A DNA stretch of 64,000 nucleotides from Bacteroidia bacterium (lineage in GTDB: Bacteria > Bacteroidota > Bacteroidia > UKL13-3): NCBI GenBank assembly GCA_044370475.1, contig JBILVK010000003.1, positions 12,452-76,451 of the forward strand. Direction: 5' to 3'. The notes under the pieces were generated by a model that was not told the origin of the DNA, did no database searches, and was given only the letters and a program-made list of their open reading frames with translations. The translations under genes and the position numbers were made by a program. Positions within the stretch are counted from its first letter, which is position 1, and every line of letters begins with the position of its first letter. Shown piece by piece: positions 4,700 through 55,876 of this stretch.

Positions 4700-5008
4700 C
4701 TATTCCAACCTAAAACTTAGGCCCTTTTCAGCCAGAAATTTATGCAATTTGGGCATACTACTTTTACCCATTCCATGAAAGCTCAACACCTCTTTTTCGC
4801 TATATTCTGCCAATTGCGCCAAGCTTTGTATGCCATTATTCTCCAAAGCACGCCTAGCAGGGGCAGCTAGGTCAGCCAAAAAACCATTCTCAGGTCTTTC
4901 ATTTAAATCACAAATGGGACAAACCAAACAATCAGAACTCTTATAAAATCGGTGTCCCTTTTCACAAATTTTCAAGTGTTTTTTTGTTTCCATATCCTTT
5001 GCATTCAT
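4700..5008 (-). CDS. Small hypothetical protein with a CxxC...CxxC zinc ribbon and a C-terminal helix-hairpin-helix segment that resembles RNA polymerase alpha CTD.
   Basis: ORF of 102 aa. Motifs CEKGH...CLVCPIC and HGMGKSSMPKLHKFLAEKGLSF. No confident family assignment. Confidence 0.4.
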   Translation of the reverse strand: MNAKDMETKKHLKICEKGHRFYKSSDCLVCPICDLNERPENGFLADLAAPARRALENNGIQSLAQLAEYSEKEVLSFHGMGKSSMPKLHKFLAEKGLSFRLE

Positions 5009-5063
5009 GCTTTTTTATTTCGGTTTGAACCAATACAACAAGTGTAATAAATTTAGTCCTAAA

Positions 5064-5681
5064 TTAGAATATTCTTGGCCAAAACATAGGCACATTCATT
5101 TGATAGTTTTGATAAGCACTGCCAAATTGTTTAAGCAATTTTTTCTCTTCCCATCTTGCCCCAACATATAAATATACGCAGCCAATAAAGCTAAAGATAA
5201 AACTTCCCCAGCAAGGTTTATACATTAAATAACCAAACAATAAAAGATAGCTCGCGGTATACAATGGGTGTCGCATCAATTGGTTCAGACCGTTAATTTT
5301 TAACTCCTCCGAAATGGCCGCATTAAACGTTTTATTGCGCCATTGCATCAATCCCAAAAACTCGCTCATTTGATAATTTCTAAAACTTAAATAAGCCATT
5401 ACCAAACCCAATATCATAAGCACCAAGCCCAATATAAACAATACCTGCGAGCTATACCACCTTTCTTCTTCTATTTCGGTTTGAACCCAAACAGCCATGA
5501 AAAATAAAAGCAACGAAACGCCATTATACATAAACCGATAATAAGGCACACTCCCTTTTGCATGCTGGCTAACCCAATCCTTTGCCCGCGTAGATGCCAT
5601 AGCACTGTGCACGCCATAAAACAATAGCCAATGGATGATTAAATGAAGGTATGGATTCATTATTTTTATACTATGGACCAT
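5064..5681 (-). CDS. Membrane methyltransferase of the isoprenylcysteine carboxyl methyltransferase / PEMT / NnrU-like family.
   Basis: 205 aa, multiple predicted TM segments. Contains the C-terminal motif MRHPLYTASYLLLFG...GARWEEKKLLKQFGSAYQNYQMNVP typical of the ICMT/PEMT family. The start may instead be M8 (MNPY). Confidence 0.65.
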   Translation of the reverse strand: MVHSIKIMNPYLHLIIHWLLFYGVHSAMASTRAKDWVSQHAKGSVPYYRFMYNGVSLLLFFMAVWVQTEIEEERWYSSQVLFILGLVLMILGLVMAYLSFRNYQMSEFLGLMQWRNKTFNAAISEELKINGLNQLMRHPLYTASYLLLFGYLMYKPCWGSFIFSFIGCVYLYVGARWEEKKLLKQFGSAYQNYQMNVPMFWPRIF

Positions 5682-5712: not shown

Positions 5713-6543
5713 CTAAATCACCACCTGCTCCAACAACCTAATTCCCTTCTCTGTCTGCTGCACCGTGCAAGCTGCGTGAAATGGGTCATGCTCAAAAAAC
5801 AAAATATCACCACGCTCAGCAGCAGTTGCTAAAATCGCACTCTTCTCCTGCATGGTGTCGAGCGGACGAACATCATAACCCATCACATAAGCCGTAGGAA
5901 TATGCGCTTGTGTTGGAATAACGTCTGCCAAATATACCACACGCTTTCCTTGATAAGGAATAATGGGATGAATCATTTGATTGGTATGGCCTTTAGAATA
6001 AATCAAATCAATCTCTGGATGAAACAACTCCCCTTCCTTCAATAATTTTAACTGTCCGCTCTCTTGTATTGGCAAAATATTGTCGCGCAAGAAACTCGCC
6101 TTCTCACGTGCATTGGGCTTCTGACTCTCATTCCAATGCGCCTCAGCAACCCAATAGGTAGCATTGGGAAAGGCCGTTTGAAAAGCTGTCCTATCCTTAT
6201 TCCACTCAATACTTCCGCCACAATGATCAAAATGCAAATGGGTTAAAACCATATCGGTAATATCTGCCTTGGTAAAGCCATGTTTGTTCAACGATTTCTC
6301 CAAACTATCATCGCCATGCAAAAAGTAAAATCCTAAAAATTTATCATCCTGCTTATTGCCAATACCATTGTCTATTAAGATTAATCTTTTTCCGTCCTGA
6401 ACCAACAAACAACGCATGGCCAAACGAATCATATTGTTCTCATCTGCAGGATTGGCCTTGTTCCAAATGCTCTTAGGAACCACGCCAAACATGGCTCCAC
6501 CATCCAACTTAAAATACCCCGTATCTATTGTAAATAATTCCAT
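5713..6543 (-). CDS. MBL-fold metallo-hydrolase (lactonase-like).
   Basis: 276 aa with the THLHFDHCGG (HxHxDH) metal-binding motif and downstream His/Asp residues. Confidence 0.8.
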   Translation of the reverse strand: MELFTIDTGYFKLDGGAMFGVVPKSIWNKANPADENNMIRLAMRCLLVQDGKRLILIDNGIGNKQDDKFLGFYFLHGDDSLEKSLNKHGFTKADITDMVLTHLHFDHCGGSIEWNKDRTAFQTAFPNATYWVAEAHWNESQKPNAREKASFLRDNILPIQESGQLKLLKEGELFHPEIDLIYSKGHTNQMIHPIIPYQGKRVVYLADVIPTQAHIPTAYVMGYDVRPLDTMQEKSAILATAAERGDILFFEHDPFHAACTVQQTEKGIRLLEQVVI

Positions 6544-6941: not shown

Positions 6942-7625
6942 CTACTTTTCCTTATTAAACATCTTACTCATACTATCAAACAAGATGCTAACATTAAAAT
7001 ATACCGCCTCTATACCTTCGTCGTTTTTCTTCACTTTTAATCGATCACATTGCATAGCAGTTAAACTTTGCATACCTGCAGATTCTAAATCCATCCAATT
7101 CAACATTGTATATTCATTACCTACATTAATCACCCAAAAGGCGGTTTCCTCCGTTTTACCATCACCCGTAGAATAAATCGTTTCCATAATTCCCCTAAAC
7201 ATCGCTATCGCATTTCTCCGCTCTGCATCCCTATCCAACATTTTATATGCGTAGGCAAGGTAAAGCCAATTGTCAACATCAAAGGGCATTTCCTTCAGCA
7301 CTTTCTCACTTAAGGTAATAATCTTCTCCAAGTCCTTTTCACTGTGCTTCTCTTTACTGTTTAAAATTTCCTTCAATTTTTTATCATCTCCACTTCCGTA
7401 CGGACTGTATTTTTCTTGCACTGCCCCACCATAATACAAATAGAAAAAATCATCTTCTAGCAGCATAGTATCTTTTTTTAAATACCTATTCATCAAACCC
7501 GAATAGTTATATTTTGCGCTATCTGCTAGCACCAGTTTAACTTCCTTTAAGTTTACTTTCCTAAAGGAATCCTGTCCAAAACATAAGCTTGGCAACAAAA
7601 AAAGTAGGCTAATTAATTTCATCAT
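6942..7625 (-). CDS. Hypothetical secreted protein (possibly DUF4919-like).
   Basis: 227 aa with the N-terminal signal peptide MMKLISLLFLLPSLCFGQ. Confidence 0.5.
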   Translation of the reverse strand: MMKLISLLFLLPSLCFGQDSFRKVNLKEVKLVLADSAKYNYSGLMNRYLKKDTMLLEDDFFYLYYGGAVQEKYSPYGSGDDKKLKEILNSKEKHSEKDLEKIITLSEKVLKEMPFDVDNWLYLAYAYKMLDRDAERRNAIAMFRGIMETIYSTGDGKTEETAFWVINVGNEYTMLNWMDLESAGMQSLTAMQCDRLKVKKNDEGIEAVYFNVSILFDSMSKMFNKEK

Positions 7626-42283: not shown

Positions 42284-43660
42284 TTAAAAAATGTTTAAGA
42301 TAGGTGCAGGATACAAGCCAAACACCAAGCTTAAAGCCAAACAAACCCATATAACCAGCTTAAAATTGAATGGAATCACCAAATTTGCCTCATTTTGTGG
42401 TTTTCCATACATGGCAATAATTACCTTAAAATAATAGTAAACTCCTATCATAGAGGCAAATATGGCCACCAAGGTGGTATAGAAAAAATTGCTATGTAAA
42501 GCTTCTGTAAAAATGTAATATTTACCCAAAAATCCAGCAAATGGAGGTATCCCTGCTAAGCCCAACATCGCAATACTCATGCCTGCTGCTGCCATTGGAT
42601 TTTTCTTTCCTAAGCCATTAAATGAGTCAATATCCTCCGATTTACTTGCCTGAAACATCGGTATTGCAATCGCAAATGCCGCAATCGTACTTAATGCATA
42701 GGCCAAAGAATAGTAAAATAAAGCCCCTGCTGGTTGATTTTTAGCACTCAATACAATCAACATCATATATCCAGCATGCGATATCCCAGAGTATGCCAAA
42801 AGTCGCTTAAAATTGGTCTGAGCCAATGCCATTAAGTTACCAACCGCCAATGTTAATATGGCCGCCACATTTAAAATTAACTCTGCTTTGTCTGAGGTGT
42901 AAAAGAAAGTAACACTCATAAGCTTATAAAATGCCCCAAATGCTGCAATCTTTACCAAAGTACTCATATAAGCTGTAACCAATGCTGGCGAACCTTCATA
43001 TACATCTGGTGCCCAGAAATGAAAAGGTGCTGCAGATACTTTAAACAACATAGCAAAAACCACCAATACCATTCCTGTATAAAACAAAGGCGAAATGTTC
43101 TGTTGGTTCTGTATGGTATAATCAGCAATCTTAGCCAAATCAAATGATCCTGTGGCTCCAAAAATCAATGCTATTCCAAACAACAAAAAACAAGAAGCAA
43201 AACTTCCCATCAAGAAATATTTAAATCCGGCCTCGTTCGACCTAATATCAAATCGCTTGCTGCCTGCCATTACATATAAGGAAATAGACAAGGTCTCAAT
43301 TCCTAAAAACAACATGGTTAAATTAGCATACGAAAACATCATCAATGCACCCACCAAAATAAAGGTTAAGATGGTCATGTAATCACTGATGTGGTTCTGT
43401 TGGTTCTCATAGTAATCAGAACTCAATATAAATACCAACAGAGTAACAAATATAGCTAGTCCGCTAAAGGCAACAGAAAAATTGTCTACCTTCAACATAT
43501 TGTTAAAATACGACTGATTGAGGTTCCAATCATTCATATTCAAGCCAAAAATTACGGCCAATCCCAAAACCAATACTGGTATGATCAGCTTTCTTAGGTT
43601 CAAAATTTCTGCCAACATGCAGAAAAATCCTAACACAGATGTATATATAAGCGTATTCAC
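42284..43660 (-). CDS. nuoN: NADH-quinone oxidoreductase subunit N.
   Basis: 458 aa polytopic antiporter-like subunit. Last gene of the nuo operon. Confidence 0.85.
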   Translation of the reverse strand: MNTLIYTSVLGFFCMLAEILNLRKLIIPVLVLGLAVIFGLNMNDWNLNQSYFNNMLKVDNFSVAFSGLAIFVTLLVFILSSDYYENQQNHISDYMTILTFILVGALMMFSYANLTMLFLGIETLSISLYVMAGSKRFDIRSNEAGFKYFLMGSFASCFLLFGIALIFGATGSFDLAKIADYTIQNQQNISPLFYTGMVLVVFAMLFKVSAAPFHFWAPDVYEGSPALVTAYMSTLVKIAAFGAFYKLMSVTFFYTSDKAELILNVAAILTLAVGNLMALAQTNFKRLLAYSGISHAGYMMLIVLSAKNQPAGALFYYSLAYALSTIAAFAIAIPMFQASKSEDIDSFNGLGKKNPMAAAGMSIAMLGLAGIPPFAGFLGKYYIFTEALHSNFFYTTLVAIFASMIGVYYYFKVIIAMYGKPQNEANLVIPFNFKLVIWVCLALSLVFGLYPAPILNIF

Positions 43661-43670
43661 TTTGGTTCTT

Positions 43671-45104
43671 TTATTTGATGATGGTTTTTAAAACAGGTTC
43701 TGTTAACTCAATAATTGGGTTAGGGAAAATACCCAAGGCAAAAATCAAAAGGCCTATGCTTACCAAGACCACTTTTTCATTCCACATTAAATCTGGAAAC
43801 ACCATATTCTCTTTAACTGCCTTTCCCAAGACTACCTTTTGGTACATTCTTAACATATAAACTGCTCCCAAAATAATGGTCAATCCGGCAAATGCTCCAA
43901 GCCAAGTATTGTATTCGTACACGCCAAACAACAACATAAACTCTCCCACAAATCCACTGGTTAATGGCAAGGCAATTGATCCCAATACAATGATTAAGAA
44001 CCATGCAGCAAAGCTCGGTGCAAGCAACCTAATGCCGCCCAAACCTTCTACTTCTTCATGCTGTGTGCGGTTAAACACGATATCGGCACAGAAGAATAAT
44101 CCCACCACCGTTAAGCCATGTGATACCATCTGAACCAAACTTCCTTGCAATCCACTCATGTTTAAGGCAAATACACCTGCACTTATTAAACCCACGTGGG
44201 CAATAGATGAATAGGCCAATAACCTCTTCATATCCCTTTGCATAATAGCAATGATGCTGGCATAAACCACGCCTGCAACAGACAATGCAATTACCCAAGG
44301 CTGCCACTCTGCTACGCCAGCAGGCAATACAGGCAATAACCACCTAATTAAACTGTAAGTACCCATCTTCAACATAATACCAGATAACAACATCGTTCCC
44401 TGGGTTGGTGCAGAATGATAGGTATCTGGCTGCCAAGTATGAAATGGAATAATTGGAATCTTAATGGCAAAAGCAATAAAGAACAACCAAAACAACCACG
44501 ACTGATTGCAGCTGCATGCTGGATTTGCCACCAAGGATGCCCAATCTAATGAGTTAGCCGGACTTCCATTATACAAGAACAAGAAGCCAAACAACATCAG
44601 CAAACTGCCCGCCAAGGTGTATATAAAGAACTTCAAGGTAACCTTAGCCCTATCTTCTCCGCCCCAATTAAAGGCAATAAAATAAATAGGAATTAAAGCC
44701 AACTCCCAAAAGATATAATAGATAAATCCATCAAAGGAAATAAACACCCCATTCAAGGCAAATTGCATAAACAACATCAAGCTGTAAAATACATGCATGC
44801 GGTTTGTTTCACGGTTGTAGCCACTTAACACAATTAATGGCAACAATAAATTGGTGAGTAAAACCATTAACATACTCATGCCATCCATTGATAAATGAAC
44901 GTTAATGAGCGGCTTGGCCGACCAATTCTGAAGGTAATCAAATGGCCCAGCACCTTCTGCTTTAAACACAGTGTAGGCAAATACAGTGAAACCAAATTGT
45001 ACCAAGGTGAACACCAAGGCCAGGTTTCTGCTCATGGCTCCTCTGCTAAATAATAGCAATATAGAAGCGATTAGCGGTATGGATAAAAGAGTTAAGCTAA
45101 GCAT
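43671..45104 (-). CDS. nuoM: NADH-quinone oxidoreductase subunit M.
   Basis: Antiporter-like subunit. The start was placed at the internal Met MLSLTLLSIP (45104), which abuts the nuoL stop. The track ORF extends to 45227 and would overlap nuoL. Confidence 0.85.
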   Translation of the reverse strand: MLSLTLLSIPLIASILLLFSRGAMSRNLALVFTLVQFGFTVFAYTVFKAEGAGPFDYLQNWSAKPLINVHLSMDGMSMLMVLLTNLLLPLIVLSGYNRETNRMHVFYSLMLFMQFALNGVFISFDGFIYYIFWELALIPIYFIAFNWGGEDRAKVTLKFFIYTLAGSLLMLFGFLFLYNGSPANSLDWASLVANPACSCNQSWLFWLFFIAFAIKIPIIPFHTWQPDTYHSAPTQGTMLLSGIMLKMGTYSLIRWLLPVLPAGVAEWQPWVIALSVAGVVYASIIAIMQRDMKRLLAYSSIAHVGLISAGVFALNMSGLQGSLVQMVSHGLTVVGLFFCADIVFNRTQHEEVEGLGGIRLLAPSFAAWFLIIVLGSIALPLTSGFVGEFMLLFGVYEYNTWLGAFAGLTIILGAVYMLRMYQKVVLGKAVKENMVFPDLMWNEKVVLVSIGLLIFALGIFPNPIIELTEPVLKTIIK

Positions 45105-45106
45105 TT

Positions 45107-47035
45107 TTAGTACACCAATTGAATAAACATTAATACCATCATTCCAATAACCATTGCAAATATATAAACCCCTGTATTTCCGGTCTGAACCAAACGTATG
45201 GTTCTGCCAGTAAATCCAACGATCCATGCTGTTGCCATTACTACTAAATCAATAACCAATTTGTCTATCACAACAAATAAAACATCACTCAAAATGGTTA
45301 ATGGACGAACAACAATTCTATCATAAAACTCATCAACATAAAACTTATTAGCAGCCCATTTGGCCAAACCAGTAGTTTCTGCATCTGCCTCAGGCATGGT
45401 TTTGTTTTTAATATACATCACATATGCAATTCCAAAACTCACCGCTGCTAATCCCAAAGCCAATGCCATCAACATAATCTCTGTTCCATGATCCATATGA
45501 TGGGCCTCTCCCAAATAAGCTTTCGAGCCTTCAAATACAGGAGCCAAATACGTTCCGAACCAATGCGTTTGCGCCATTACAGCCGGCATACCCCAAAATC
45601 CTGCAATGGTAGAAAACACCGCCAAAATACTCAATGGCAAAGTCATGGTCCACGGCGATTCATGCAAATGGTGCTTCTGTTCTTCGGTACCTCTAAAAGA
45701 ATTTTGAAAGGTTAAGAACATTACCCTAAACATATAGAAGGCTGTCAACATAGAACTCACACTCACCAATACCCACACCAATTTGTGGTTGCTAAATGCG
45801 GCTGCCAAAATCTCATCTTTAGAGAAGAAACCGGCAAATGGAAATATTCCAGAAATAGCTAAAGTGGCAATCAAGAAAGTATAGAAGGTAATCTTAATAT
45901 ATTTAGCCAAACCTCCCATGTTTCTGATGTCTTGCTCTCCGCCCATGGCATGTATTACACTACCTGCGCCTAAGAACAATAAAGCTTTAAAGAATGCATG
46001 GGTAACCACATGAAACATGCCGCTCGAAAATGCACCTAATCCCAAAGCCACAAACATTAATCCCAATTGAGATACCGTAGAGTATGCCAATACTTTCTTG
46101 ATATCATTTTGTTTCATGCCAATAAAGGCTGCAAACAAGGAGGTAGCAACACCCACCCACATCACCACTTCCATGGTAAAGGGTGCCATCGCATATAAAA
46201 TATTAGAACGAGCAATCATATAGATACCTGCGGTAACCATGGTTGCAGCGTGTATCAAGGCTGATACTGGAGTTGGACCCGCCATAGCATCTGGCAACCA
46301 AGTGTACAATGGAATTTGTGCACTCTTACCCATAGCTCCTACAAACAATAACAAGGTAATGGTAACCAATAATGTGCTACCCACTTCTAGGCCTTGAGCT
46401 CCTGCATTTACCGTGGCAAAATCTAATCCGCCAAAATAAAATAGCATGAAAAACATTCCTACCAAAAAGCCCAAATCACCAATTCGGTTCATCACAAATG
46501 CCTTTTTAGCGGCATCGTTATAGGCATCATTTTTGAACCAAAAACCAATTAATAAATAAGAGCATAAGCCTACGCCTTCCCAACCAATAAACATTACCAT
46601 GTAGCTATTACCTAATACCAATAACAACATGAAAAATATAAATAGGTTCAGATAGGAAAAGAATCTTGCAAAGCCTTCATCGTGGTGCATGTAACCAATA
46701 GAATATAGGTGTATCAAGAATCCTATACCCGTTACCACCAATAACATAATCAAAGATAGGTGGTCAATTAAAAAACCAAACGATAAGGTAATATTGCCAA
46801 ATTTAATCCAATCGAAAAGCGTGAAATTTAAGTCTGCATTGGCAGGCAAATTCATAAATAAATAGGTAGATAAAAGGAATGAAATCAATATCATTCCACT
46901 GGCTAACCAGCCTGCTGCATGCTTGAGTGTTTTACCAAATAATGCAGTCAATAAAAACCCCAGCAACGGAAATAAAGGTATTAACGAAGCAGGTGTAATT
47001 AATTTTGTGAGTTCTAAAAAGTTGTCCATGTTCAT
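45107..47035 (-). CDS. nuoL: NADH-quinone oxidoreductase subunit L.
   Basis: 642 aa with a long C-terminal amphipathic helix region. Confidence 0.9.
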   Translation of the reverse strand: MNMDNFLELTKLITPASLIPLFPLLGFLLTALFGKTLKHAAGWLASGMILISFLLSTYLFMNLPANADLNFTLFDWIKFGNITLSFGFLIDHLSLIMLLVVTGIGFLIHLYSIGYMHHDEGFARFFSYLNLFIFFMLLLVLGNSYMVMFIGWEGVGLCSYLLIGFWFKNDAYNDAAKKAFVMNRIGDLGFLVGMFFMLFYFGGLDFATVNAGAQGLEVGSTLLVTITLLLFVGAMGKSAQIPLYTWLPDAMAGPTPVSALIHAATMVTAGIYMIARSNILYAMAPFTMEVVMWVGVATSLFAAFIGMKQNDIKKVLAYSTVSQLGLMFVALGLGAFSSGMFHVVTHAFFKALLFLGAGSVIHAMGGEQDIRNMGGLAKYIKITFYTFLIATLAISGIFPFAGFFSKDEILAAAFSNHKLVWVLVSVSSMLTAFYMFRVMFLTFQNSFRGTEEQKHHLHESPWTMTLPLSILAVFSTIAGFWGMPAVMAQTHWFGTYLAPVFEGSKAYLGEAHHMDHGTEIMLMALALGLAAVSFGIAYVMYIKNKTMPEADAETTGLAKWAANKFYVDEFYDRIVVRPLTILSDVLFVVIDKLVIDLVVMATAWIVGFTGRTIRLVQTGNTGVYIFAMVIGMMVLMFIQLVY

Positions 47036-47048
47036 TTGTTCAATGCTC

Positions 47049-47372
47049 CTACCATTTCAATTTACTTAGAATGTCGATATCGGTAGTGGCCATGTTTCGG
47101 TAAATGCTTACCAATAATGCCAAGCCTACCGCAACTTCTGCTGCTGCTACCACCATGATAAAAAATACAAAAACCTGTCCCTCGGTATTTCCTGCGTATG
47201 CAGAAAAACTAACCAATAATAGGTTTACAGAATTTAACATCAATTCTACACACATAAGAATGATTAAGGCATTTCTACGCATTAATACACCCATTACACC
47301 AATAGAAAATAAAATGGTGCTCAATACCAAATACCAATTTTGTGGATGAGCTTGTAATAATTGCTGTTCCAT
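47049..47372 (-). CDS. nuoK: NADH-quinone oxidoreductase subunit K.
   Basis: 107 aa, three TM segments. Confidence 0.85.
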   Translation of the reverse strand: MEQQLLQAHPQNWYLVLSTILFSIGVMGVLMRRNALIILMCVELMLNSVNLLLVSFSAYAGNTEGQVFVFFIMVVAAAEVAVGLALLVSIYRNMATTDIDILSKLKW

Positions 47373-47872
47373 TAATTAACCTCCTTTTTTGCTAATACCA
47401 CTGCACCTACCATCGCTCCTAAAAATAATACTGCTGTCATCTCAAATGGCAACAAGAAATCGGTAAACAATTTCATGCCCACTTTTTGCACAAACCCAAC
47501 ATCCGAAGCCATTGGAGCTGCGTATGGTCCTAATTCTGTTGACCTCATAGCTGCCAATAAAACCAAGAGCATCATGCCGCCTGTTACAATAGCGGCACCC
47601 TTAAATAACATTGATTTATGAGGCTCCGATTCTTTGTTTAAATTCAATAGCATCACTGTAAATAACATCAAAACCATAATGGCTCCTGCATACACAATGA
47701 TATGTACCACTGCCAAAAATTGCGCATTCAACATCACATAATGGCCGGCAATGGAAAAAAAGCAAACAATCAACCACAGCACGCTGTAAATTGGATTCTT
47801 TGAAAACACCACAAACAGGGCACTCAATATAGAGAGCGCTGCAAGCATAAAAAATATTAACTGACTACTCAT
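47372..47872 (-). CDS. nuoJ: NADH-quinone oxidoreductase subunit J.
   Basis: 166 aa membrane subunit in operon position. Confidence 0.8.
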   Translation of the reverse strand: MSSQLIFFMLAALSILSALFVVFSKNPIYSVLWLIVCFFSIAGHYVMLNAQFLAVVHIIVYAGAIMVLMLFTVMLLNLNKESEPHKSMLFKGAAIVTGGMMLLVLLAAMRSTELGPYAAPMASDVGFVQKVGMKLFTDFLLPFEMTAVLFLGAMVGAVVLAKKEVN

Positions 47873-47905
47873 CGCTTTTGTCTTTAGTTAGCTTCTGTTA
47901 AAAGC

Positions 47906-48439
47906 TTAAATGGTATAATCCTTTTTCCTTTTGTTTATATCTATACGTTGGTCAACCTTCTCCACCAACATATCTTTTCCAAACACAAATTCTCCGCGGG
48001 AGAACTCAGAAGGAACAATTCTATCGGTAAGGTAAATGGCATCTTTTGGACAAGCTTCTTCGCACAATCCACAGAAAATGCAACGCAACATGTTAATTTC
48101 ATATTTGGCTGCATACTTCTCTTCGCGGTACAAATGCTCCTCCCCTTTCTTGCGCTCAGCTGCATCCATAGTAATGGCTTCGGCCGGACAAGATACTGCG
48201 CATAATCCGCAGGCGGTACAATTTTCCCTTCCTTGCTCATCGCGCTTCAATACATGCATACCACGGTATACAGGCGCAAACTCGCGGGTTACTTCAGGAT
48301 ATTTTAAAGTAGCCTTTTTCTTAAACAAATGCTTTATTGTAATTCTAAGTCCGCCCAAAATTGCAGGCAAGTATAACTTTTCTGCAAAGGTCATCTCTGG
48401 CTTAGAAACTACTTTAGATCTATTGGTTAATTGTGTCAT
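47906..48439 (-). CDS. nuoI: NADH-quinone oxidoreductase subunit I (2x[4Fe-4S] ferredoxin).
   Basis: CTACGLCAVSCP and CIFCGLCEEACP cluster motifs. Confidence 0.9.
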   Translation of the reverse strand: MTQLTNRSKVVSKPEMTFAEKLYLPAILGGLRITIKHLFKKKATLKYPEVTREFAPVYRGMHVLKRDEQGRENCTACGLCAVSCPAEAITMDAAERKKGEEHLYREEKYAAKYEINMLRCIFCGLCEEACPKDAIYLTDRIVPSEFSRGEFVFGKDMLVEKVDQRIDINKRKKDYTI

Positions 48440-48458
48440 TACTGCTTAGTCCTAATTA

Positions 48459-49490
48459 TTAATTTCCAAAAAAAGTTAAAATCGCACCGGTTACCAAAAC
48501 ATTGATAATGGCCAATGGCATTAATACTTGCCATCCCAAGCGCATCAATTGGTCGTAACGGAATCTCGGGATCGTCCAACGCACCCACATAAAGAAGAAT
48601 ATAAAGAAGAATATTTTAGAGAATAAAACGCCTACACTTATTAAGCTCACCAAATTTCCAGGTAAGATAGTTCCCAAATACTCTAATCCAGGGAAGTTAT
48701 ATCCACCTAAGAACAAGCAAGAAATAATAGCAGAAGAAATAAACATATTGATGTACTCACCAAACAAATACAAACCAAGCTTCATGGAAGAATACTCGGT
48801 ATGAAAACCACCAATTAGTTCCGACTCAGATTCAGGTAAATCAAAAGGAGTACGGTTGGCTTCGGCAAAAGAACAAACCAAGAAAATAATAAAAGCAACA
48901 GGCTGGTAGAACATATTCCAATTCAATCCTTTTTGTCCCTCTACAATGGCATTTAAGCTTAAAGAACCATCTGTCATAAGCAATACCGCCACTACACTCA
49001 TACCCATGGCCAATTCATAAGAAATCATCTGACTGCTGGCACGAATGGCACCCAATAAAGCGTATTTGTTATTAGACGACCAGCCACCAATCATAATGCC
49101 ATAAACGCCCAAAGAAAGCACGCCCATCACATACAAGATACCAATATTTACATCGGCAATTTGCAATACATAGGTAACACCTCCAAACTCCATTGGCATT
49201 CCCCAAGGAATAACTGCAGAAGTCATTAAGGCTGTCACCATAAACATACTTGGTGCCAGAATAAACAACAATTTATCAGAAACATTCGGAATAATTTCTT
49301 CCTTTAAGAACATCTTGGTTCCATCTGCAATAGGCTGCAACAAACCAAAAGGACCCGCTCTATCTGGACCAATACGGTCTTGTAAGAAGGCGGCTACTTT
49401 ACGCTCTGCGTAGGTGCTATAGGCTGCAATACCCAAACTAGCCACAAACACAAAAAGCACTAATATGGCTTTAAATATAAGTATACTCAT
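48459..49490 (-). CDS. nuoH: NADH-quinone oxidoreductase subunit H.
   Basis: 343 aa membrane subunit with the conserved RIGPDRAGPFGLLQP motif. Confidence 0.9.
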   Translation of the reverse strand: MSILIFKAILVLFVFVASLGIAAYSTYAERKVAAFLQDRIGPDRAGPFGLLQPIADGTKMFLKEEIIPNVSDKLLFILAPSMFMVTALMTSAVIPWGMPMEFGGVTYVLQIADVNIGILYVMGVLSLGVYGIMIGGWSSNNKYALLGAIRASSQMISYELAMGMSVVAVLLMTDGSLSLNAIVEGQKGLNWNMFYQPVAFIIFLVCSFAEANRTPFDLPESESELIGGFHTEYSSMKLGLYLFGEYINMFISSAIISCLFLGGYNFPGLEYLGTILPGNLVSLISVGVLFSKIFFFIFFFMWVRWTIPRFRYDQLMRLGWQVLMPLAIINVLVTGAILTFFGN

Positions 49491-50470
49491 GATTGCTCTC
49501 CTTTTTCAATTGCCATAGGTTTTACATCGTTCAATTTAAACTCATTTGGCTTTTTAAATACCTCGTAATGGTTAGCAGATATAACAGAATGCCTGTGAAC
49601 AGGTGTAGGCGCTTCTATGGTCCAATCTGCAGTTTTTTTCTTGTCGAACCTACATGTATTACAAATAAATTCTTCAACCTCACCCCACTGATCTTTTCTA
49701 CCCGTAACACGCAATACCTCCTCACCTTTATACCACAAGTTTACCTTGCCGCTGCACTTCTCACAATCTCTATGGGCCGTCATAGGTTTGGTAAACCAAA
49801 CCCTGCTCTTAAACCTAAAAGTCTTATCGGTTAAGGCACCAACTGGACAAACATCAATTACATTACCAGAGAAATCATTGTCAACTGCCTGCTCTACATA
49901 GGTAGAGATTTCAGAATGATCGCCACGGTTAATTACACCATGCACCCTGCCATCAGTAATTTGATTGGCTACTTTTACACAGCGGTAGCAAAGGATGCAA
50001 CGCGTCATGTGTAATTGAATTTTATCGCCAATGTTTATTTTATCAAAAGTTCTGCGTTCAAAATCTGTGCGAGTTTTGCTTGAGCCGTGCTCATAAGATA
50101 AATCTTGCAAATGGCATTCGCCTGCTTGATCGCAAATAGGGCAATCTAATGGATGGTTCAAAAGCAAAAATTCAACCACACCTTTTCTTGCCTCAGTAAC
50201 TTTGGCCGAGGTGTTGTTTCCAACTTCCATTCCATCCATTACATTGGTTCGGCAAGAAGCCACCAACTTTGGCATTGGACGCGGATCTTTCTCGGAGCCT
50301 TTGGTTACCTCAACCAAACAAGTGCGGCAATAACCACCGCTGGTTTTTAGCTTGCTGTAATAGCACATGGTTGGGGGAGCTACCTCCGGACCAATCATTC
50401 TTGCTGCTTGAAGAATTGTGGTGCCATCTGGTACCTCAATTGTTCTGCCGTCTATCGTTACTTTTGCCAT
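49487..50470 (-). CDS. nuoG: NADH-quinone oxidoreductase subunit G (short Bacteroidota form, Fe-S binding N-terminal domains only).
   Basis: 327 aa. N-terminal 2Fe-2S ferredoxin-like domain and cysteine clusters (CYYSKLK...C..C, CPICDQAGEC, CILCYRC). Confidence 0.85.
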   Translation of the reverse strand: MAKVTIDGRTIEVPDGTTILQAARMIGPEVAPPTMCYYSKLKTSGGYCRTCLVEVTKGSEKDPRPMPKLVASCRTNVMDGMEVGNNTSAKVTEARKGVVEFLLLNHPLDCPICDQAGECHLQDLSYEHGSSKTRTDFERRTFDKINIGDKIQLHMTRCILCYRCVKVANQITDGRVHGVINRGDHSEISTYVEQAVDNDFSGNVIDVCPVGALTDKTFRFKSRVWFTKPMTAHRDCEKCSGKVNLWYKGEEVLRVTGRKDQWGEVEEFICNTCRFDKKKTADWTIEAPTPVHRHSVISANHYEVFKKPNEFKLNDVKPMAIEKGEQS

Positions 50471-50540
50471 ATCATATTATTCCTCTTTGTCGAAAAATTC
50501 TTTTATTTTTAATCAAATCTTTTATAATCACATTGAAGCG

Positions 50541-50882
50541 CTACTCAAACTTTGATATCTCCGATTTAATCTCTAAAATCAATACATCCAAATGATTATA
50601 CACAACACCCCAAATAATTTCATAATTTGTATTTGAGTAATCATGTACTATCCTATTTCTTAATCCAATTATTTGCCTTTTTGCAGAAATGTTTAATGTA
50701 TAATTCTCCTTTTCTATTTTAATTAATGCCTCAGCAATAATCTCCAACTCCTTTTCTACAGCCCTCAAAACTATTTTCCTGGCAATAAAATCATTATACA
50801 TTTTTATTCCTGAAGTATACTCTTTAATAGACAGTGCTGATTCGAGCATATCTGCAAGTAAAACGGCTACTTTAGGCTTCAT
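50541..50882 (-). CDS. hepT: HepT-like HEPN/DUF86 toxin (type VII TA RNase).
   Basis: 113 aa. The Rx4HxY motif RNRIVHDY lies near the C-terminus. It overlaps the upstream nucleotidyltransferase gene by 11 bp. Confidence 0.7.
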   Translation of the reverse strand: MKPKVAVLLADMLESALSIKEYTSGIKMYNDFIARKIVLRAVEKELEIIAEALIKIEKENYTLNISAKRQIIGLRNRIVHDYSNTNYEIIWGVVYNHLDVLILEIKSEISKFE

Positions 50883-51180
50883 AAATTAGCTTTTTTGTCT
50901 CCTCTATATTCTCGTTTAAAAATTTATTAGTTATCACTTTTTTAACCATCAAATCAACTTTCCTATTTAAAAGCAATTCAAGGTTATCTGCTAAATCAAA
51001 ATAAAGGTCGGCATAAGATTCAACTGGAATATTTTCATTGAATTTAACAATTAAATCTACGTCGCTTTCTTTATTAAACTTATTTGAATCAACCACACTT
51101 CCAAAAGCAAATAGCTCTTTTACATGATGCTGTTGGCATATGTTTGAGATTTCCTTTTTATGTTGATTGATAAAATTCAT
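50872..51180 (-). CDS. mntA: MntA-like minimal nucleotidyltransferase antitoxin.
   Basis: 102 aa with the motif FGSVVDSNKFNKESDVDLIV (GS...DxD nucleotidyltransferase signature). Confidence 0.7.
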   Translation of the reverse strand: MNFINQHKKEISNICQQHHVKELFAFGSVVDSNKFNKESDVDLIVKFNENIPVESYADLYFDLADNLELLLNRKVDLMVKKVITNKFLNENIEETKKLIYEA

Positions 51181-51186
51181 TTGCTA

Positions 51187-52533
51187 CTAATTGGCAGGTG
51201 TTACTTGATAAACGTTATCGTAATGTCTTACTTTTTTAACGTTGTTTGGATTACTTACGTAGGCTTCAAACTCTGGGCGGAAGTGGCGTATAGCACTAGC
51301 CACAGGCCATGCAGCTGCATCACCTAGTGGACAAATGGTATTGCCTTCAATTTTTGCTTGAATCTCCCACAACAAATCAATGTCTTCCATAGTGCCATGT
51401 CCGTCCATCATCTTGTGCAACAATTTCTCCATCCATGCTGTTCCTTCACGGCAAGGCGAACATTGTCCGCAGCTTTCATGGTGGTAAAAACGGGCAAAAG
51501 TGAATAGATTTTCTACAATGCTGGTAGTCTCATCCATCACAATAAATCCGCCAGAACCCAACATGGTACCACCACCAAAACCGCCATCTGCCAAACTTTC
51601 GTAAGACATTAAGCGCTTTTCGCCATTGGCCAAAGTCAATATTTTATCGGCAGGCAAAATAGGCACTGAAGAACCTCCAGCCACTACAGCCTTTAGTTTC
51701 TTGCCATGTAAAATACCACCACAATACTCGTCGCTATAAATAAAATCTTCTACCGTAATGCCCATCTCAATCTCGTAAACACCCGGCTTATTGATATGTC
51801 CAGATGCCGAAATCAACTTAGTTCCAGCAGATTTTCCAATGCCTATCTGAGCATATGCATCACCTCCATTGTTCACAATAAATGGAACAGCAGCCAAGGT
51901 TTCAACGTTATTTACAACGGTTGGACAACCATATAAACCAGCGATAGCTGGGAATGGTGGCTTTATGCGTGGGTTACCACGTTTGCCCTCCAAACTTTCT
52001 AACAAAGCTGTTTCCTCGCCACAGATATAAGCACCTGCACCTATATGTACAAATAAATCCAAGTTATAGCCTGAACCAAGGATATTTTTACCCAACCAAC
52101 CATTGGCATAAGCTTCGGCAATGGCTTTCTCAAGGATATTGGCTATATAATAATACTCACCACGGATGTATATATAGGCAGTGTTAACACCCAAAGCAAA
52201 GCTAGATGCTATCATTCCTTCAATCAATATATGTGGAATGCGCGACATTAAATACCTATCTTTAAAAGTACCCGGCTCGCTTTCATCTGCATTGCATACC
52301 AAGTAACGAGGAACACCCTCTGGTTTTGCTAAGAAGCTCCATTTCATTCCGGTAGGGAACCCTGCGCCCCCACGGCCTCTTAAACCCGATTTTTTTACTT
52401 CTTCAACCAAAGCCTCACAACTCATGGTCTTGATGGCTTTTTCTACCGAGGCATATCCTCCGTTATTACGGTAAACTTCATACCCTTGAATGCCGGGCAC
52501 ATGATCGTGCGCTAATAATATCTTTTTGCCCAT
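51187..52533 (-). CDS. nuoF: NADH-quinone oxidoreductase subunit F (FMN and NADH binding, 4Fe-4S).
   Basis: 448 aa. GRGGAGFPTG (FMN site) and CGQCSPCREG cluster motif. Confidence 0.9.
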   Translation of the reverse strand: MGKKILLAHDHVPGIQGYEVYRNNGGYASVEKAIKTMSCEALVEEVKKSGLRGRGGAGFPTGMKWSFLAKPEGVPRYLVCNADESEPGTFKDRYLMSRIPHILIEGMIASSFALGVNTAYIYIRGEYYYIANILEKAIAEAYANGWLGKNILGSGYNLDLFVHIGAGAYICGEETALLESLEGKRGNPRIKPPFPAIAGLYGCPTVVNNVETLAAVPFIVNNGGDAYAQIGIGKSAGTKLISASGHINKPGVYEIEMGITVEDFIYSDEYCGGILHGKKLKAVVAGGSSVPILPADKILTLANGEKRLMSYESLADGGFGGGTMLGSGGFIVMDETTSIVENLFTFARFYHHESCGQCSPCREGTAWMEKLLHKMMDGHGTMEDIDLLWEIQAKIEGNTICPLGDAAAWPVASAIRHFRPEFEAYVSNPNNVKKVRHYDNVYQVTPAN

Positions 52534-52537
52534 GGGA

Positions 52538-53074
52538 TTAATATTTATCTACCACTACATTATCTAAATACGTTTTTCTACTTCCCTCCCCTTTACATTG
52601 ATCCAAAATGGTATCAACCTTATCGTGGGTGAGGTTCTCATGATACTGAGCACCAATCATCATCATAGGCGCGGTACCACAGCTTCCAAGGCACTCTACA
52701 GTTTTTAGGGTAAACATGCCATCGGCAGTAGTTTCACCCTCTTTTATGCCTAATTTCTTTTCTATATGCTCTATTACCTCATTTGCCCCGCGTAACCAAC
52801 AACTGCTGGTTCTGCAAACTTCTATTAAACACTTGCCTACAGGCTTAAGGTTAAACATAGAATAAAATGATGCCACCTCGTATACTTCTATCGACTGAAT
52901 TTTTAACAAAGAAGCTACATAGTCCATTGCAGCCGGACTTAACCATCCATCGAATTCGGCTTGAGCCAAATGCAATAAAGGAATCAAAGCAGATTTCTGC
53001 TTTCCTTCTGGGTAACGCGCAATGATTTTATTGGCAACTGCTAATGTATCATCACTGAATTTTATATCACTCAT
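52538..53074 (-). CDS. nuoE: NADH-quinone oxidoreductase subunit E (thioredoxin-like 2Fe-2S).
   Basis: 178 aa with cysteines CRTSSC...CLGSCGTAP. Confidence 0.85.
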   Translation of the reverse strand: MSDIKFSDDTLAVANKIIARYPEGKQKSALIPLLHLAQAEFDGWLSPAAMDYVASLLKIQSIEVYEVASFYSMFNLKPVGKCLIEVCRTSSCWLRGANEVIEHIEKKLGIKEGETTADGMFTLKTVECLGSCGTAPMMMIGAQYHENLTHDKVDTILDQCKGEGSRKTYLDNVVVDKY

Positions 53075-53211
53075 CTTTTGGTCTTTGGTCTTTGGTCTTT
53101 AGCTGTTAGCTGTTAGCTGTTAGCTGTTGGCTATTGGCTTATACTATTCTTCATTTTTTAATCTGTGCAACTGGGCCTTTTTTCTTACTATGGTCTATGG
53201 ACCATGGACTA
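53075..53211. repeat. 137-bp oligomer-repeat spacer between nuoD and nuoE: (GGTCTTT)3, (AGCTGTT)4, GGCTATTGGC, CTATGGTCTATGGACCATGG.
   Basis: Direct reading. Same module family as 31240-31500 and 5682-5712. Confidence 0.85.
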
Positions 53212-54423
53212 CTAAGCATCTAGCTCTCCAGCAATTACATTCATGCTACTCATCGTTACAATGGCATCACTTAGGGTTGAGCCTTTGATCATCTCTGGGT
53301 AACCTTGGTAATAAATAAAACTTGGTCGGCGGAAATGCAATCTGTATGCAGCCCTACCGCCATCACTTACCAAATAGAAACCCAATTCTCCATTGCCACC
53401 TTCAACCGAATGGTAAACCTCTCCTACTGGAACATCTCCCTCTCCCATTACAATTTTAAAGTGCCAGATTAATGCTTCCATGTTATTGTAAACTTCTTGT
53501 TTTGGAGGCAAGTAAAACTCAGGAACCTCTGCAAAGAATTTACCTTCAGGCAAGTTTTCTAAGGCTTGGGTAATGATTTTATGGCTCTCCCACATTTCTT
53601 GCTGACGAACCATAAAACGATCGAAGGTATCGCCATTAATCCCTACAGGAATGATAAAATCAAAATCTTCATAACTGCAATACGGACTCATTACACGTAC
53701 ATCGTAATCTAAGCCCGTAGCCCTAAGGTTTGGACCCGTAAATCCATAATTCAAGGCACGCTCTGTGCTTATTGGTCCGGTTCCTATGGTTCTATCCATA
53801 AAAATACGGTTGCGTTCTAATAAGTCGGTAAACTCATTTAACACACGTGGAAACTCTTTTAAAAACTCCCTAATTTTTTGGAAACAAGCTGGTGAGAAAT
53901 CACGTTCCATTCCGCCAATTCTTCCGATATTGGTAGTTAAACGTGCACCACAAACTTCTTCAAAAATATCATAGATTTTTTCGCGCCATTGAAACACGTA
54001 AGTAAATCCTGTTAAGGCACCAATGTCCACTCCAATTACAGAGTTACATACCAAATGGTCTGATATACGCGCAAGTTCCATAATGATGATGCGCATATAA
54101 TCTACCCTTTTAGGTGTTTTAACCCCTAAAAGTTTCTCAACTGTCATATGCCATCCCATATTATTAATAGGAGAAGAGCAATAGTTTAACCTATCGGTTA
54201 ATGGTGTTATTTGGTAGAACGGACGGTGTTCGGCAATCTTTTCAAAAGCACGGTGAATGTATCCGCAAGTTTGCTCTGTATCCACAATAATCTCACCATC
54301 CATGGTAAGAATATTTTGAAAGATACCATGCGTTGCTGGGTGTGTTGGCCCTAGGTTTAGCTTGGTATATTCTGTTTTGTGATCGTATTGACTTATCGTA
54401 TTTTCCATGCTGTTACCTTCCAA
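53212..54423 (-). CDS. nuoD: NADH-quinone oxidoreductase subunit D.
   Basis: 403 aa 49-kDa subunit with the conserved GPTHPATHG-like N-terminal region. Confidence 0.9.
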   Translation of the reverse strand: MEGNSMENTISQYDHKTEYTKLNLGPTHPATHGIFQNILTMDGEIIVDTEQTCGYIHRAFEKIAEHRPFYQITPLTDRLNYCSSPINNMGWHMTVEKLLGVKTPKRVDYMRIIIMELARISDHLVCNSVIGVDIGALTGFTYVFQWREKIYDIFEEVCGARLTTNIGRIGGMERDFSPACFQKIREFLKEFPRVLNEFTDLLERNRIFMDRTIGTGPISTERALNYGFTGPNLRATGLDYDVRVMSPYCSYEDFDFIIPVGINGDTFDRFMVRQQEMWESHKIITQALENLPEGKFFAEVPEFYLPPKQEVYNNMEALIWHFKIVMGEGDVPVGEVYHSVEGGNGELGFYLVSDGGRAAYRLHFRRPSFIYYQGYPEMIKGSTLSDAIVTMSSMNVIAGELDA

Positions 54424-54919
54424 AATAAGTATCGTCTTTGTCTGTTCTTGTTTGGTCTTCTAAAGGATATTCTTTCCTCATTGGGAAGTATTCCATTTCC
54501 TCTACATTTAATATGCGTTTGAGGTTGGGGTGACCCACAAACTCAATTCCAAAGAAATCGAAGGTTTCTCTTTCTTGCCAATTTGCGCCATTAAACAGAG
54601 CACTTACCGTATCTATTTTTGGATCAGACAGAGGCATATAACATTTAATTCTAAGCCTAATGTTCTGGGTAAAACTGTGTAAATGGTAAATGGTAGAAAG
54701 CTCCTTGCCTGGGTTGTTAGGAAAATGTGCCCCACATACATCTGTTAAAAAATTAAACTTTAAAACAGGATGATTGATTAAATATTCAAACATAGGAACT
54801 ATGTCTTTTCTATCTAGCTCAATGGTTAACATGCCATATGGCTCTTCCACCGAATAGATGGATGCTGCAAATTGTTCCTGCAATTCTTTCAGCAAATATG
54901 CATTGTTTACTTCGCTCAT
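54413..54919 (-). CDS. nuoC: NADH-quinone oxidoreductase subunit C.
   Basis: 168 aa 30-kDa subunit in operon position, separate from nuoD. Confidence 0.85.
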   Translation of the reverse strand: MSEVNNAYLLKELQEQFAASIYSVEEPYGMLTIELDRKDIVPMFEYLINHPVLKFNFLTDVCGAHFPNNPGKELSTIYHLHSFTQNIRLRIKCYMPLSDPKIDTVSALFNGANWQERETFDFFGIEFVGHPNLKRILNVEEMEYFPMRKEYPLEDQTRTDKDDTYFGR

Positions 54920-55461
54920 TATTGTATACCGTAACTGGCCATTAATGCTTTGTATTCTGGAGACTCCCTGCGTGTTAATGCTTCTGTTTTTACCAACTCT
55001 TGTATCTTAATGATACCATCTATAATTTGTTCTGGACGTGGCGGACAGCCAGGAACATAAACATCTACAGGAATTACTTTATCTATGCCTTGCAATACAG
55101 AGTAGGTATCAAAAATACCACCGCTAGATGCGCAAGCACCTACAGCGATAACCCATCTTGGTTCGGCCATTTGCAAATAAACTTGTCTTAAAACCGGACC
55201 CATTTTCTTAGAAATTGTTCCCGTTACCATTAACAAATCTGCTTGGCGTGGAGAGAAAGAAATTCGTTCTGAACCAAAGCGCGCTAAATCGTAATTAGAT
55301 GCCATGGTAGCCATAAACTCAATGCCACAACATGATGTGGCAAAGGGCAAAGGCCAAATTGAATTGGCGCGTGCTAAACCTATTGCTTTATCAAGACTTG
55401 TAGCAAAAAAACCCTGCCCTTCTAGGCCTGGAGGTGCTTGTGTGATTTTTACAGACGACAT
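54919..55461 (-). CDS. nuoB: NADH-quinone oxidoreductase subunit B.
   Basis: CCGIEFMA...GACASSGG...PGCPP cluster-N2 motifs. Confidence 0.9.
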   Translation of the reverse strand: MSSVKITQAPPGLEGQGFFATSLDKAIGLARANSIWPLPFATSCCGIEFMATMASNYDLARFGSERISFSPRQADLLMVTGTISKKMGPVLRQVYLQMAEPRWVIAVGACASSGGIFDTYSVLQGIDKVIPVDVYVPGCPPRPEQIIDGIIKIQELVKTEALTRRESPEYKALMASYGIQ

Positions 55462-55492
55462 AAAAAAACTTTAGATTTTATTGGTTTCAAAA

Positions 55493-55876
55493 TTACTCCC
55501 ACTTTAAAGCGCCCTTTTTTAGGATGTAGAAAAATCCCAATAATAAGGTGCTTATAAATATCAACATTTCATAGAATCCTAATGGACCCAATGCTTTAAA
55601 ATTAACTGCCCATGGATACATGAAGATTACCTCCACATCAAACATCACAAACAAAATGGCAGTTAAAAAATAACGAATAGAAAATGGCATACGCGCATTT
55701 CCCTGCGGCTCAATTCCACACTCAAACACATCGAGCTTGTCACTTGTCTTTCGTTTTGGTCCAACCATATGCGAAACAACGATGGCAAAAACCACAAAAC
55801 CTACAGCTACTAAGAACTGCATAAAAATGGCGAAATAATCAACGCTTGTAGACATAATATTATATAATAAAGCCAC
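55493..55876 (-). CDS. nuoA: NADH-quinone oxidoreductase subunit A.
   Basis: 127 aa with three TM segments. First gene of the operon. Confidence 0.85.
   Translation of the reverse strand: MALLYNIMSTSVDYFAIFMQFLVAVGFVVFAIVVSHMVGPKRKTSDKLDVFECGIEPQGNARMPFSIRYFLTAILFVMFDVEVIFMYPWAVNFKALGPLGFYEMLIFISTLLLGFFYILKKGALKWE

Follow-up and report, generated by a model that had tools for sequence, protein, structure and literature searches.

The stretch of DNA analyzed here (the window) comprises 64,000 nucleotides (nt) from a Bacteroidia bacterium (GTDB lineage Bacteroidota; Bacteroidia; UKL13-3; GenBank assembly GCA_044370475.1, contig JBILVK010000003.1, positions 12,452 to 76,451 of the forward strand). 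Its minus strand carries a complete 14-gene nuoA-N operon (positions 42284-55876), and between nuoF and nuoG of this operon lie two small genes predicted to encode a HepT/MntA toxin-antitoxin-type module, which related lineages carry at the same site. All 14 nuo genes point in the same direction, and each falls into its expected Pfam family. The upstream neighbor of the pair, nuoF (51187-52533, minus strand; 448 amino acids [aa]; Pfam Complex1_51K at 4.9e-48 and NADH_4Fe-4S at 1.2e-33), is followed after a 6-nt spacer (51181-51186, minus strand; TAG-TAGCAA-ATG) by an mntA-like gene (50872-51180, minus strand) encoding a 102-aa minimal nucleotidyltransferase and predicted AMPylating antitoxin. 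The last 11 nt of mntA, its stop region (50872-50882, minus strand; ATGAAGCCTAA), overlap the start of a hepT-like gene (50541-50882, minus strand) encoding a 113-aa HEPN protein and predicted RNase toxin. An AT-rich spacer of 70 nt (50471-50540, minus strand) then leads to nuoG (49487-50470, minus strand; 327 aa; Pfam Fer4_Nqo3 at 5.9e-30, NADH-G_4Fe-4S_3, and Fer2_4). A preliminary description of this sequence had placed an overlapping gene pair, antitoxin before toxin, inside a codirectional 14-gene nuo operon; the open reading frame (ORF) list and the Pfam matches agree with this layout, and the 6-, 11-, and 70-nt spacings are exact. The term "inserted" was also apt, since nuoF directly adjoins nuoG in most related Bacteroidota, the median gap being 61 bp. 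If the mntA-hepT insert is set aside, the gaps at the nuo junctions of the window range from -11 to 137 nt, and no second copy of the pair is present elsewhere in the 64 kb.

The HepT-like protein matches Pfam PF01934 at 8.8e-17, with 61.4 bits against a cutoff of 23.5, and carries the RX4HXY motif as R75-N-R-I-V-H80-D81-Y82 (codons at 50637-50660, minus strand). In a phmmer search of PDB sequences, residues 69-99 align with the HepT chains 5yep_B and 6m6u_B of Shewanella oneidensis, which places R75-x4-H80 on the R-x4-H of that toxin and Y82 opposite its Y104, a register confirmed by the Y104A entry 6m6w. Among 10 homologues, R75, N76, H80, D81, and Y82 are invariant. The downstream gene had been described as a DUF86/HEPN gene with the motif RNRIVHDY, and the PF01934 match and the presence of R75, H80, and Y82 bear this out. 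The AlphaFold2 model of the protein (pLDDT, 88.3) has five helices and predicts a HEPN fold, an all-alpha bundle like those of solved HEPN toxins. In Foldseek, each of the top 25 PDB matches of this model is a chain of a HepT or HEPN toxin; the best are 6m6u, 5yep, and 7ae8, with template modeling (TM) scores of 0.71-0.75.

The MntA-like protein matches the Pfam families Polbeta (PF18765, 4.7e-14) and NTP_transf_2 (PF01909, 1.5e-11) and, weakly, NTase-conflict, and it aligns with the minimal nucleotidyltransferase of PDB entry 1wot (E value of 0.002). It is also matched by the PADLOC phage defense candidate PDC-S09 (model PDLC04905, 2.8e-26). The alignment with 1wot, together with the sequence itself and its invariant columns, locates the active-site motif G27-S28-x11-D40-x-D42 (codons at 51055-51102, minus strand), and G27, S28, D40, D42, and a further aspartate, D76, are invariant across 16 homologues. 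The nucleotidyltransferase signature had been given as GSx10DxD. Both GS and DxD are present, but the spacer between them is 11 residues long, a one-residue insertion relative to 1wot, so that the motif reads GSx11DxD.

Class I HepT/MntA modules have been defined by an RX4HXY motif in the toxin and a GSX10DXD motif in the antitoxin, with a toxin of Pfam family PF01934 or PF08780, an antitoxin of family PF01909, and the MNT gene as the upstream neighbor (PMC7641770). The window pair has the toxin family, the RX4HXY motif, the antitoxin family, and the adjacent genes with MNT upstream; its MntA has the catalytic residues of the GSX10DXD motif at a spacing of 11 instead of the literal 10. By these features the pair is a predicted class I HepT/MntA module, i.e., of the type VII toxin-antitoxin kind, and the family identity proposed earlier holds up well, with Pfam matches far beyond chance, catalytic motifs in both proteins, and the predicted fold. 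In the S. oneidensis system, HepT is tri-AMPylated by MntA at Y104, and its neutralization by MntA is ATP dependent (PMC7641770).

In the index of a public assembly collection, proteins identical to the window HepT and NuoF occur in 85 and 37 blocks, respectively, and all species contigs read across the junction have the order nuoF-mntA-hepT-nuoG. Beyond the species, protein searches returned homologues with identities of 58-77% for the HepT query and 55-93% for the MntA query. Genomic context was examined for nine homologues of 58-77% identity (P0002, P0003, P0004, P0005, P0010, P0011, P0033, P0036, and P0043), and every one of them has its gene in the nuoF-nuoG junction. The 11-nt mntA-hepT overlap is identical in every nuo-embedded homologue in which both genes were called intact, and the NuoF proteins of pair-carrying lineages are 76-92% identical to that of the window. 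A 42% homologue, P0014, sits in an unrelated neighborhood elsewhere in its genome. A scan of metagenome contigs with a HepT alignment gave relatives of at most 48% identity, a background set in which the close clade was not recovered; only 1 of 80 such distant relatives (33-48% identity) has a nuo context, namely, the top match, L112. No relatives were found on the viral contigs scanned with the same alignment. The pair is thus not a one-off insert but has kept its position throughout a clade in which NuoF identity falls to 76%. Family-wide conservation of a pair lacking toxin-antitoxin properties had been named as grounds for abandoning the assignment. Conservation was found, but the toxin-antitoxin hallmarks are retained, which refines the assignment. 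As to significance, coupling to respiration and a tolerated selfish element had both been put forward earlier; the evidence favors a resident that the host has tolerated, or benefited from, over a long time, and speaks less for a selfish element that hopped in recently.

In a neighbor-joining tree of NuoF plus NuoG, the window, L106, L100, L101, L103, and L195, all of which carry the pair, form a clade with 100% support that also includes L017. The latter has no insert, and its 44-bp nuoF-nuoG spacer contains no remnants of the pair. In the sister subclade, L192 carries the pair and its 100%-supported sister L019 has a gene for a 554-aa protein instead, while L112 carries two pairs and its sister L048 an ORF6N gene; the slot is empty in L020, L021, and L023 and holds a gene for a Pfam-less protein of ~280 aa in L022. 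The pair is fixed and codiverges with the host in one subclade and is patchily distributed in the other. A tree of concatenated MntA and HepT sequences, which took in at least 60 background pairs, groups the nuo-embedded pairs together, those of L112 excepted, and its topology is largely congruent with that of the host tree. We read this pattern as one old insertion that would have been inherited mostly vertically and then subject to losses, replacements, and some exchange, a reading that has to allow for the weakness of the deep node. The pairs of L112, the placement of which has weak tree support, may share this insertion or may represent an independent gain.

The seven clade sequences first compared have equal lengths and no indels. 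Substitution rates were estimated by the method of Nei and Gojobori. For L101 and L103, the comparison with the clearest unsaturated synonymous rate (dS), the ratio of nonsynonymous rate (dN) to dS is 0.12 for mntA and 0.24 for hepT, and values for the pair range from about 0.1 to 0.25 wherever dS is unsaturated. In the other comparisons synonymous sites are saturated, and the corresponding ratio of uncorrected proportions (pN/pS) is 0.2-0.5. In matched comparisons, dN of the pair is usually ~2- to 3-fold that of nuoF and nuoG, and it increases with host divergence. By these ratios, both mntA and hepT are under purifying selection, and sustained selection on the toxin hints at a function at the level of the host. 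One lineage departs from this pattern. In L106 (positions 4866-5207), as in L107 and L108, an in-frame stop interrupts hepT at codon 21, with mntA and the remainder of hepT intact. The stop occurs in these three contigs from three samples, and the truncated product is found in 9 contigs overall. The hepT gene of L106-L108 is thus a recent toxin pseudogene, and decay of a toxin-antitoxin module would be expected to begin in just this way, with a nonsense mutation in the toxin gene beside an intact antitoxin gene.

The packing of the junction bears on how the pair is expressed. With 6 nt between nuoF and mntA in the window, and 1-12 nt in L098, L106, L100, and L192, the intergenic space is too short for a promoter, and read-through transcription of the pair on the nuo mRNA is therefore probable. 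In L098, L106, and L192, hepT ends 1-3 nt before nuoG, so that nuoG must be transcribed through the pair. No terminator-like hairpin was detected in either of the two spacers that flank the pair. A scan for sigma-70 promoters gave 39 promoter-like matches against 51.5 in shuffled sequence, the sigma-70 consensus being different from that of Bacteroidota. In a scan with TAnnTTTG, the motif precedes nuoA, and the single occurrence within the pair, inside hepT, matches the background frequency in coding sequence. The conserved 11-nt overlap suggests that hepT is translationally coupled to mntA. The pair also differs from its surroundings in composition, with a GC content of 0.28-0.30 versus 0.39-0.43 in the flanking nuo genes. 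Low GC and low GC at third codon positions (GC3) are found in every lineage and partly follow the GC of the host; in L192, for example, GC3 is 0.30-0.38 in the pair and 0.50-0.60 in the nuo genes. Since low GC recurs in every lineage despite saturated dS, it is a property of the genes and not a mark of recent arrival, and a recent transfer deduced from low GC was rejected on these grounds.

Small accessory genes at the nuoF-nuoG junction are not confined to the HepT/MntA pair. A NuoF search retrieved 39 representative genomes of Bacteroidota (loci L017-L054 and L066); nuoF and nuoG were both detected in 35, and 9 of these 35 have an insert of more than 300 bp between the two genes. At eight other nuo junctions, inserts of this size were seen zero times or once each, giving 4 in 269 junction observations. 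Insertions into the nuo operons of Bacteroidota concentrate specifically between nuoF and nuoG, a hotspot at which small accessory genes preferentially land or are retained. Its occupants include a GxxExxY/PDDEXK_3 protein (L047), an ORF6N protein (L048), a decayed four-helix-bundle gene (L028), a GDSL-type hydrolase (L042), secreted proteins of unknown family (L019 and L045), and a conserved Pfam-less protein of ~280 aa (L022:6345-7181, L041:6400-7269, and L053:9126-9941). The last of these has ~270-290 aa, a signal peptide, and the motifs FLTFEHTDGLNYVNAEVE and GYINMPDI, lies directly upstream of nuoG, and has no match in Pfam or NCBIfam. It was found in three distant Bacteroidota, Riemerella columbina among them, and its gene may represent a more ancient accessory of the nuo operon. 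The 327-aa NuoG of the window is itself a short form that consists of the N-terminal Fe-S domains alone (Fer2_4, NADH-G_4Fe-4S_3, and Fer4_Nqo3), and all of the Bacteroidota relatives aligned match it over ~300-320 residues.

Neighboring junctions are occupied in some members of the clade as well. In L101 (2385-2962), a toxin-antitoxin-like pair of DUF4160 and DUF2442 genes lies between nuoE and nuoF; its DUF4160 protein resembles the DhiT toxin, at 78.7 bits against a cutoff of 100. PDDEXK_3 genes occupy the same junction in L103 and on the contig of P0036. The nuoD-nuoE gap of the window (53075-53211; 137 nt), the largest spacer of the operon besides the one that follows hepT, is a junction that also carries inserted genes in the related lineages L192 and L195. 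Three MNT/HEPN-type pairs share the nuo operon of L195 (1677-2367 and 5001-6751). The one in the nuoD-nuoE junction is of the PF05168 type; the other two, in the nuoF-nuoG slot, are MntA/HepT pairs, and the second of these has a HepT shortened to 76 aa. In L112 (1032-3830), the nuoF-nuoG slot holds the gene for a secreted protein of 449 aa, after which come two MntA/HepT pairs in tandem. The first HepT of L112 lacks the histidine of Rx4H (RNFLAQ), and the N termini of its two MntA proteins are nearly identical, which suggests a recent duplication or gene conversion.

Two further elements accompany slot genes. A family of ~100-aa proteins with the N-terminal signal or anchor sequence MKTKIILIAVITIIGISLFSAFKQS and without a Pfam match is found alongside MntA/HepT pairs in the nuoF-nuoG slot (L101:4355-4663, L103:2519-2821, and L195:4599-4946, 5871-6179, and 7013-7333); L195 has three copies, and one L101/L195 pair of copies is 96% identical despite different positions. 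In one sublineage, every small gene of the slot is bordered by a same-strand AATCNGNG-repeat element (AATCWGWG-WAATCTGYG...GGCTAA; L102:274-338 and 983-1047, L103:2811-2974 and 3654-3775, L101:5448-5473, and L195:3095-3112), some copies of which contain nested hairpins. In L102, mntA and nuoG are each directly preceded by a copy of a 65-nt direct repeat (94% identity; distance between copies, 709 nt), so that the pair there forms a cassette flanked by duplicated leaders. An Rfam search of the operon and of the repeat-bearing related loci returned nothing relevant, and the repeat element had no match. The element is absent from the window.

We consider it likely that the pair is an ordinary HepT/MntA module that lost its autonomous transcription and persists in a safe-harbor slot, possibly with some general benefit. 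By analogy with the characterized family, HepT would be a small HEPN RNase with R75-x4-H80 as its active site, and MntA, using G27, S28, D40, D42, and D76, would drive the ATP-dependent oligo-AMPylation of Y82 beside that active site and so keep HepT inactive. The module entered the nuoF-nuoG junction long ago, in an ancestor of a freshwater Bacteroidota clade resembling Chitinophagales, and appears to have been inherited largely vertically since; both genes have stayed under purifying selection. The most likely reason for its persistence is that a promoterless, self-neutralizing module between indispensable genes would be hard to delete and cheap to carry. An additional general benefit, such as abortive infection or a stress response, may contribute; a role specific to complex I is less probable.

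Several observations weigh against this account. Purifying selection on the toxin over a divergence at which synonymous sites are saturated exceeds what pure addiction predicts. The deepest node of the MntA plus HepT tree is weakly supported (31% with L192 and 59% without it), and L101 and L195 are incongruent, with a dN of 0.04 for nuoF but 0.32 for hepT; because L195 carries two pairs and its distances to L101 are incongruent, sorting of paralogues or exchange between nuo operons through recombination has probably contributed. A promoter could lie within the 3' end of nuoF or within hepT, Bacteroidota promoters being of a kind that the sigma-70 scan does not cover. On the side of family membership, the spacer of the MntA motif has 11 residues and not 10, and both proteins score below the 60-bit cutoffs of the NCBIfam equivalogs (38.2 bits for MntA with NF047752 [MntA_antitoxin] and 34.0 bits for HepT with NF047751 [HepT_toxin]), which makes them related proteins but not equivalogs by the NCBI criterion. 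HepT also has no match to PADLOC models at an E value of 0.01 or below. Finally, toxicity, RNase activity, AMPylation, and cotranscription are all deduced from sequence.

The same selection on the toxin would suit an anti-phage role, in which the pair would act by abortive infection, with infection setting HepT free, and the constitutively expressed nuo operon that houses it would do no more than express it steadily and shield it from deletion. The PDC-S09 and weak NTase-conflict matches of MntA point in this direction, as do the turnover of the slot and the tandem duplication and divergence of pairs in L112 and L195, as in an arms race. However, HepT is without a PADLOC counterpart, the viral contigs scanned hold no relatives, the immediate neighborhood contains no other defense genes, and dN of the pair, only ~2- to 3-fold that of nuoF and nuoG, gives no sign of positive selection; on balance we regard this reading as unlikely. 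A domesticated regulator coupled to energy or respiration is improbable in our estimation. Here the HepT RNase would be tied to complex I expression or to the ATP supply, and it might process nuo mRNA at the nuoE-F/nuoG boundary or shut down translation when respiration fails. The long-conserved position, the purifying selection on toxin as well as antitoxin, the tight promoterless packing by which the dosage of the pair follows nuo transcription, the gathering of several MNT/HEPN-type pairs in single nuo operons (L195 and L112), and the known ATP dependence of MntA (PMC7641770) would all be in keeping with such a role. Against it, the slot is empty in one close relative (L017) and filled by unrelated genes in others (the 554-aa protein in L019 and ORF6N in L048), from which it follows that complex I can do without the pair. 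A nonsense mutation has cost one lineage its hepT, the DhiT-like and GxxExxY genes at other nuo junctions of the clade fit a permissive harbor better, and a literature search for HEPN/MNT or toxin-antitoxin modules in nuo or other housekeeping operons found no relevant paper in the searchable library and hence no HEPN/MNT-nuo link.

A recent, strain-specific selfish insertion by horizontal transfer could account for the GC difference between the pair (0.28-0.30) and its flanks (0.39-0.43), and toxin-antitoxin modules are typically mobile. Every species contig read nevertheless has the pair at the same site, as do lineages with NuoF identities of 76-92% and saturated dS, and the low GC is shared by all lineages and partly tracks that of the host; we give this explanation almost no credence. 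The boldest reading, which we hold to be decidedly doubtful, combines two elements: a nuo-embedded HepT/MntA pair co-opted as an energy status switch for complex I, and a junction that acts as a cassette-like harbor exchanging small conflict modules. Were the first element true, production of the pair would follow that of the nuo mRNA and HepT would be silenced by ATP-dependent AMPylation, so that upon failure of respiration or of the ATP supply unmodified HepT would cleave nuo or bulk mRNA. For the second, the repeats that border the nuoF-nuoG slot in some lineages would be the relevant feature. There is as yet no evidence for a new mechanism.

Returning to the ordinary module in a safe harbor, if this reading alone is true, the locus is a well-documented and unsurprising new context for an abundant toxin-antitoxin family. 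Both proteins are additions to a well-characterized family that is very abundant; what is unusual is their genomic lifestyle, embedded in an operon, apparently without a promoter of their own, and inherited vertically over the long term. The role of chromosomal toxin-antitoxin modules in their hosts is a long-standing question, and most such modules are patchy and mobile, so that selection on them is hard to read. This lineage, which has kept a single position in the complex I operon through many species, offers a clean natural case in which persistence by location only can be set against a defense benefit and against coupling to energy metabolism. The phylum-wide nuoF-nuoG hotspot aids annotation and provides natural slot variants for comparison.

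Among known systems, the type VII prototype is the HepT/MntA pair of S. oneidensis (SO_3166/SO_3165; PMC7641770 and PMC4621449; PDB 5yep, 6m6u, and 7bxo). The window pair shares with it the Pfam combination PF01909/PF01934, the antitoxin gene upstream of the toxin gene, an RX4HXY motif that aligns residue for residue (GLRNxxVHDY, with Y82 at Y104), and the GS...DxD motif with a third aspartate in MntA, and the S. oneidensis structures are the best structural matches of the window HepT (TM scores of 0.71-0.73). In contrast to these likenesses, sequence alignment is limited to the motif region (E value of 0.002), the window HepT is ~20 residues shorter (113 aa versus chains of 133-139 aa), and the GS-to-DxD spacer has 11 residues versus 10. 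The two pairs also differ in how they are embedded. That of S. oneidensis is an autonomous bicistronic operon with a promoter ~30 nt upstream that is bound by MntA (PMC4621449), whereas the window pair begins 6 nt after nuoF within the nuo operon and does not have the antitoxin-autoregulated promoter directly upstream that marks the canonical autonomous arrangement.

The pair CL1_0071/CL1_0070 of Thermococcus cleftensis (PMC7641770) is a compact class I pair whose AMPylated RX4HXY tyrosine is likewise Y82, and it is similar to the window pair in overall size and motif position, judged by the description in that paper. It is archaeal and, as far as the same paper describes it, not embedded in an operon. 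The HEPN/MNT modules of Aphanizomenon flos-aquae and Legionella pneumophila (PDB 7ae2, 7ae6, 7ae8, 7ae9, 8xdj, and 8xeh; PMC11586414) have toxins with the same HEPN fold (TM scores of up to 0.75, for 7ae8) and, according to PDB titles and abstracts, a logic of neutralization by AMPylation that we infer for the window pair. Sequence identity to these toxins is 10-18%, and unlike the window pair they are larger and belong to free-standing modules. The other genes of the nuoF-nuoG slot (GxxExxY/PDDEXK_3, ORF6N, and four-helix-bundle) come from unrelated families, and none of them is a two-gene toxin-antitoxin pair, but they resemble the window pair in position, orientation, small size, and the apparent lack of a promoter.

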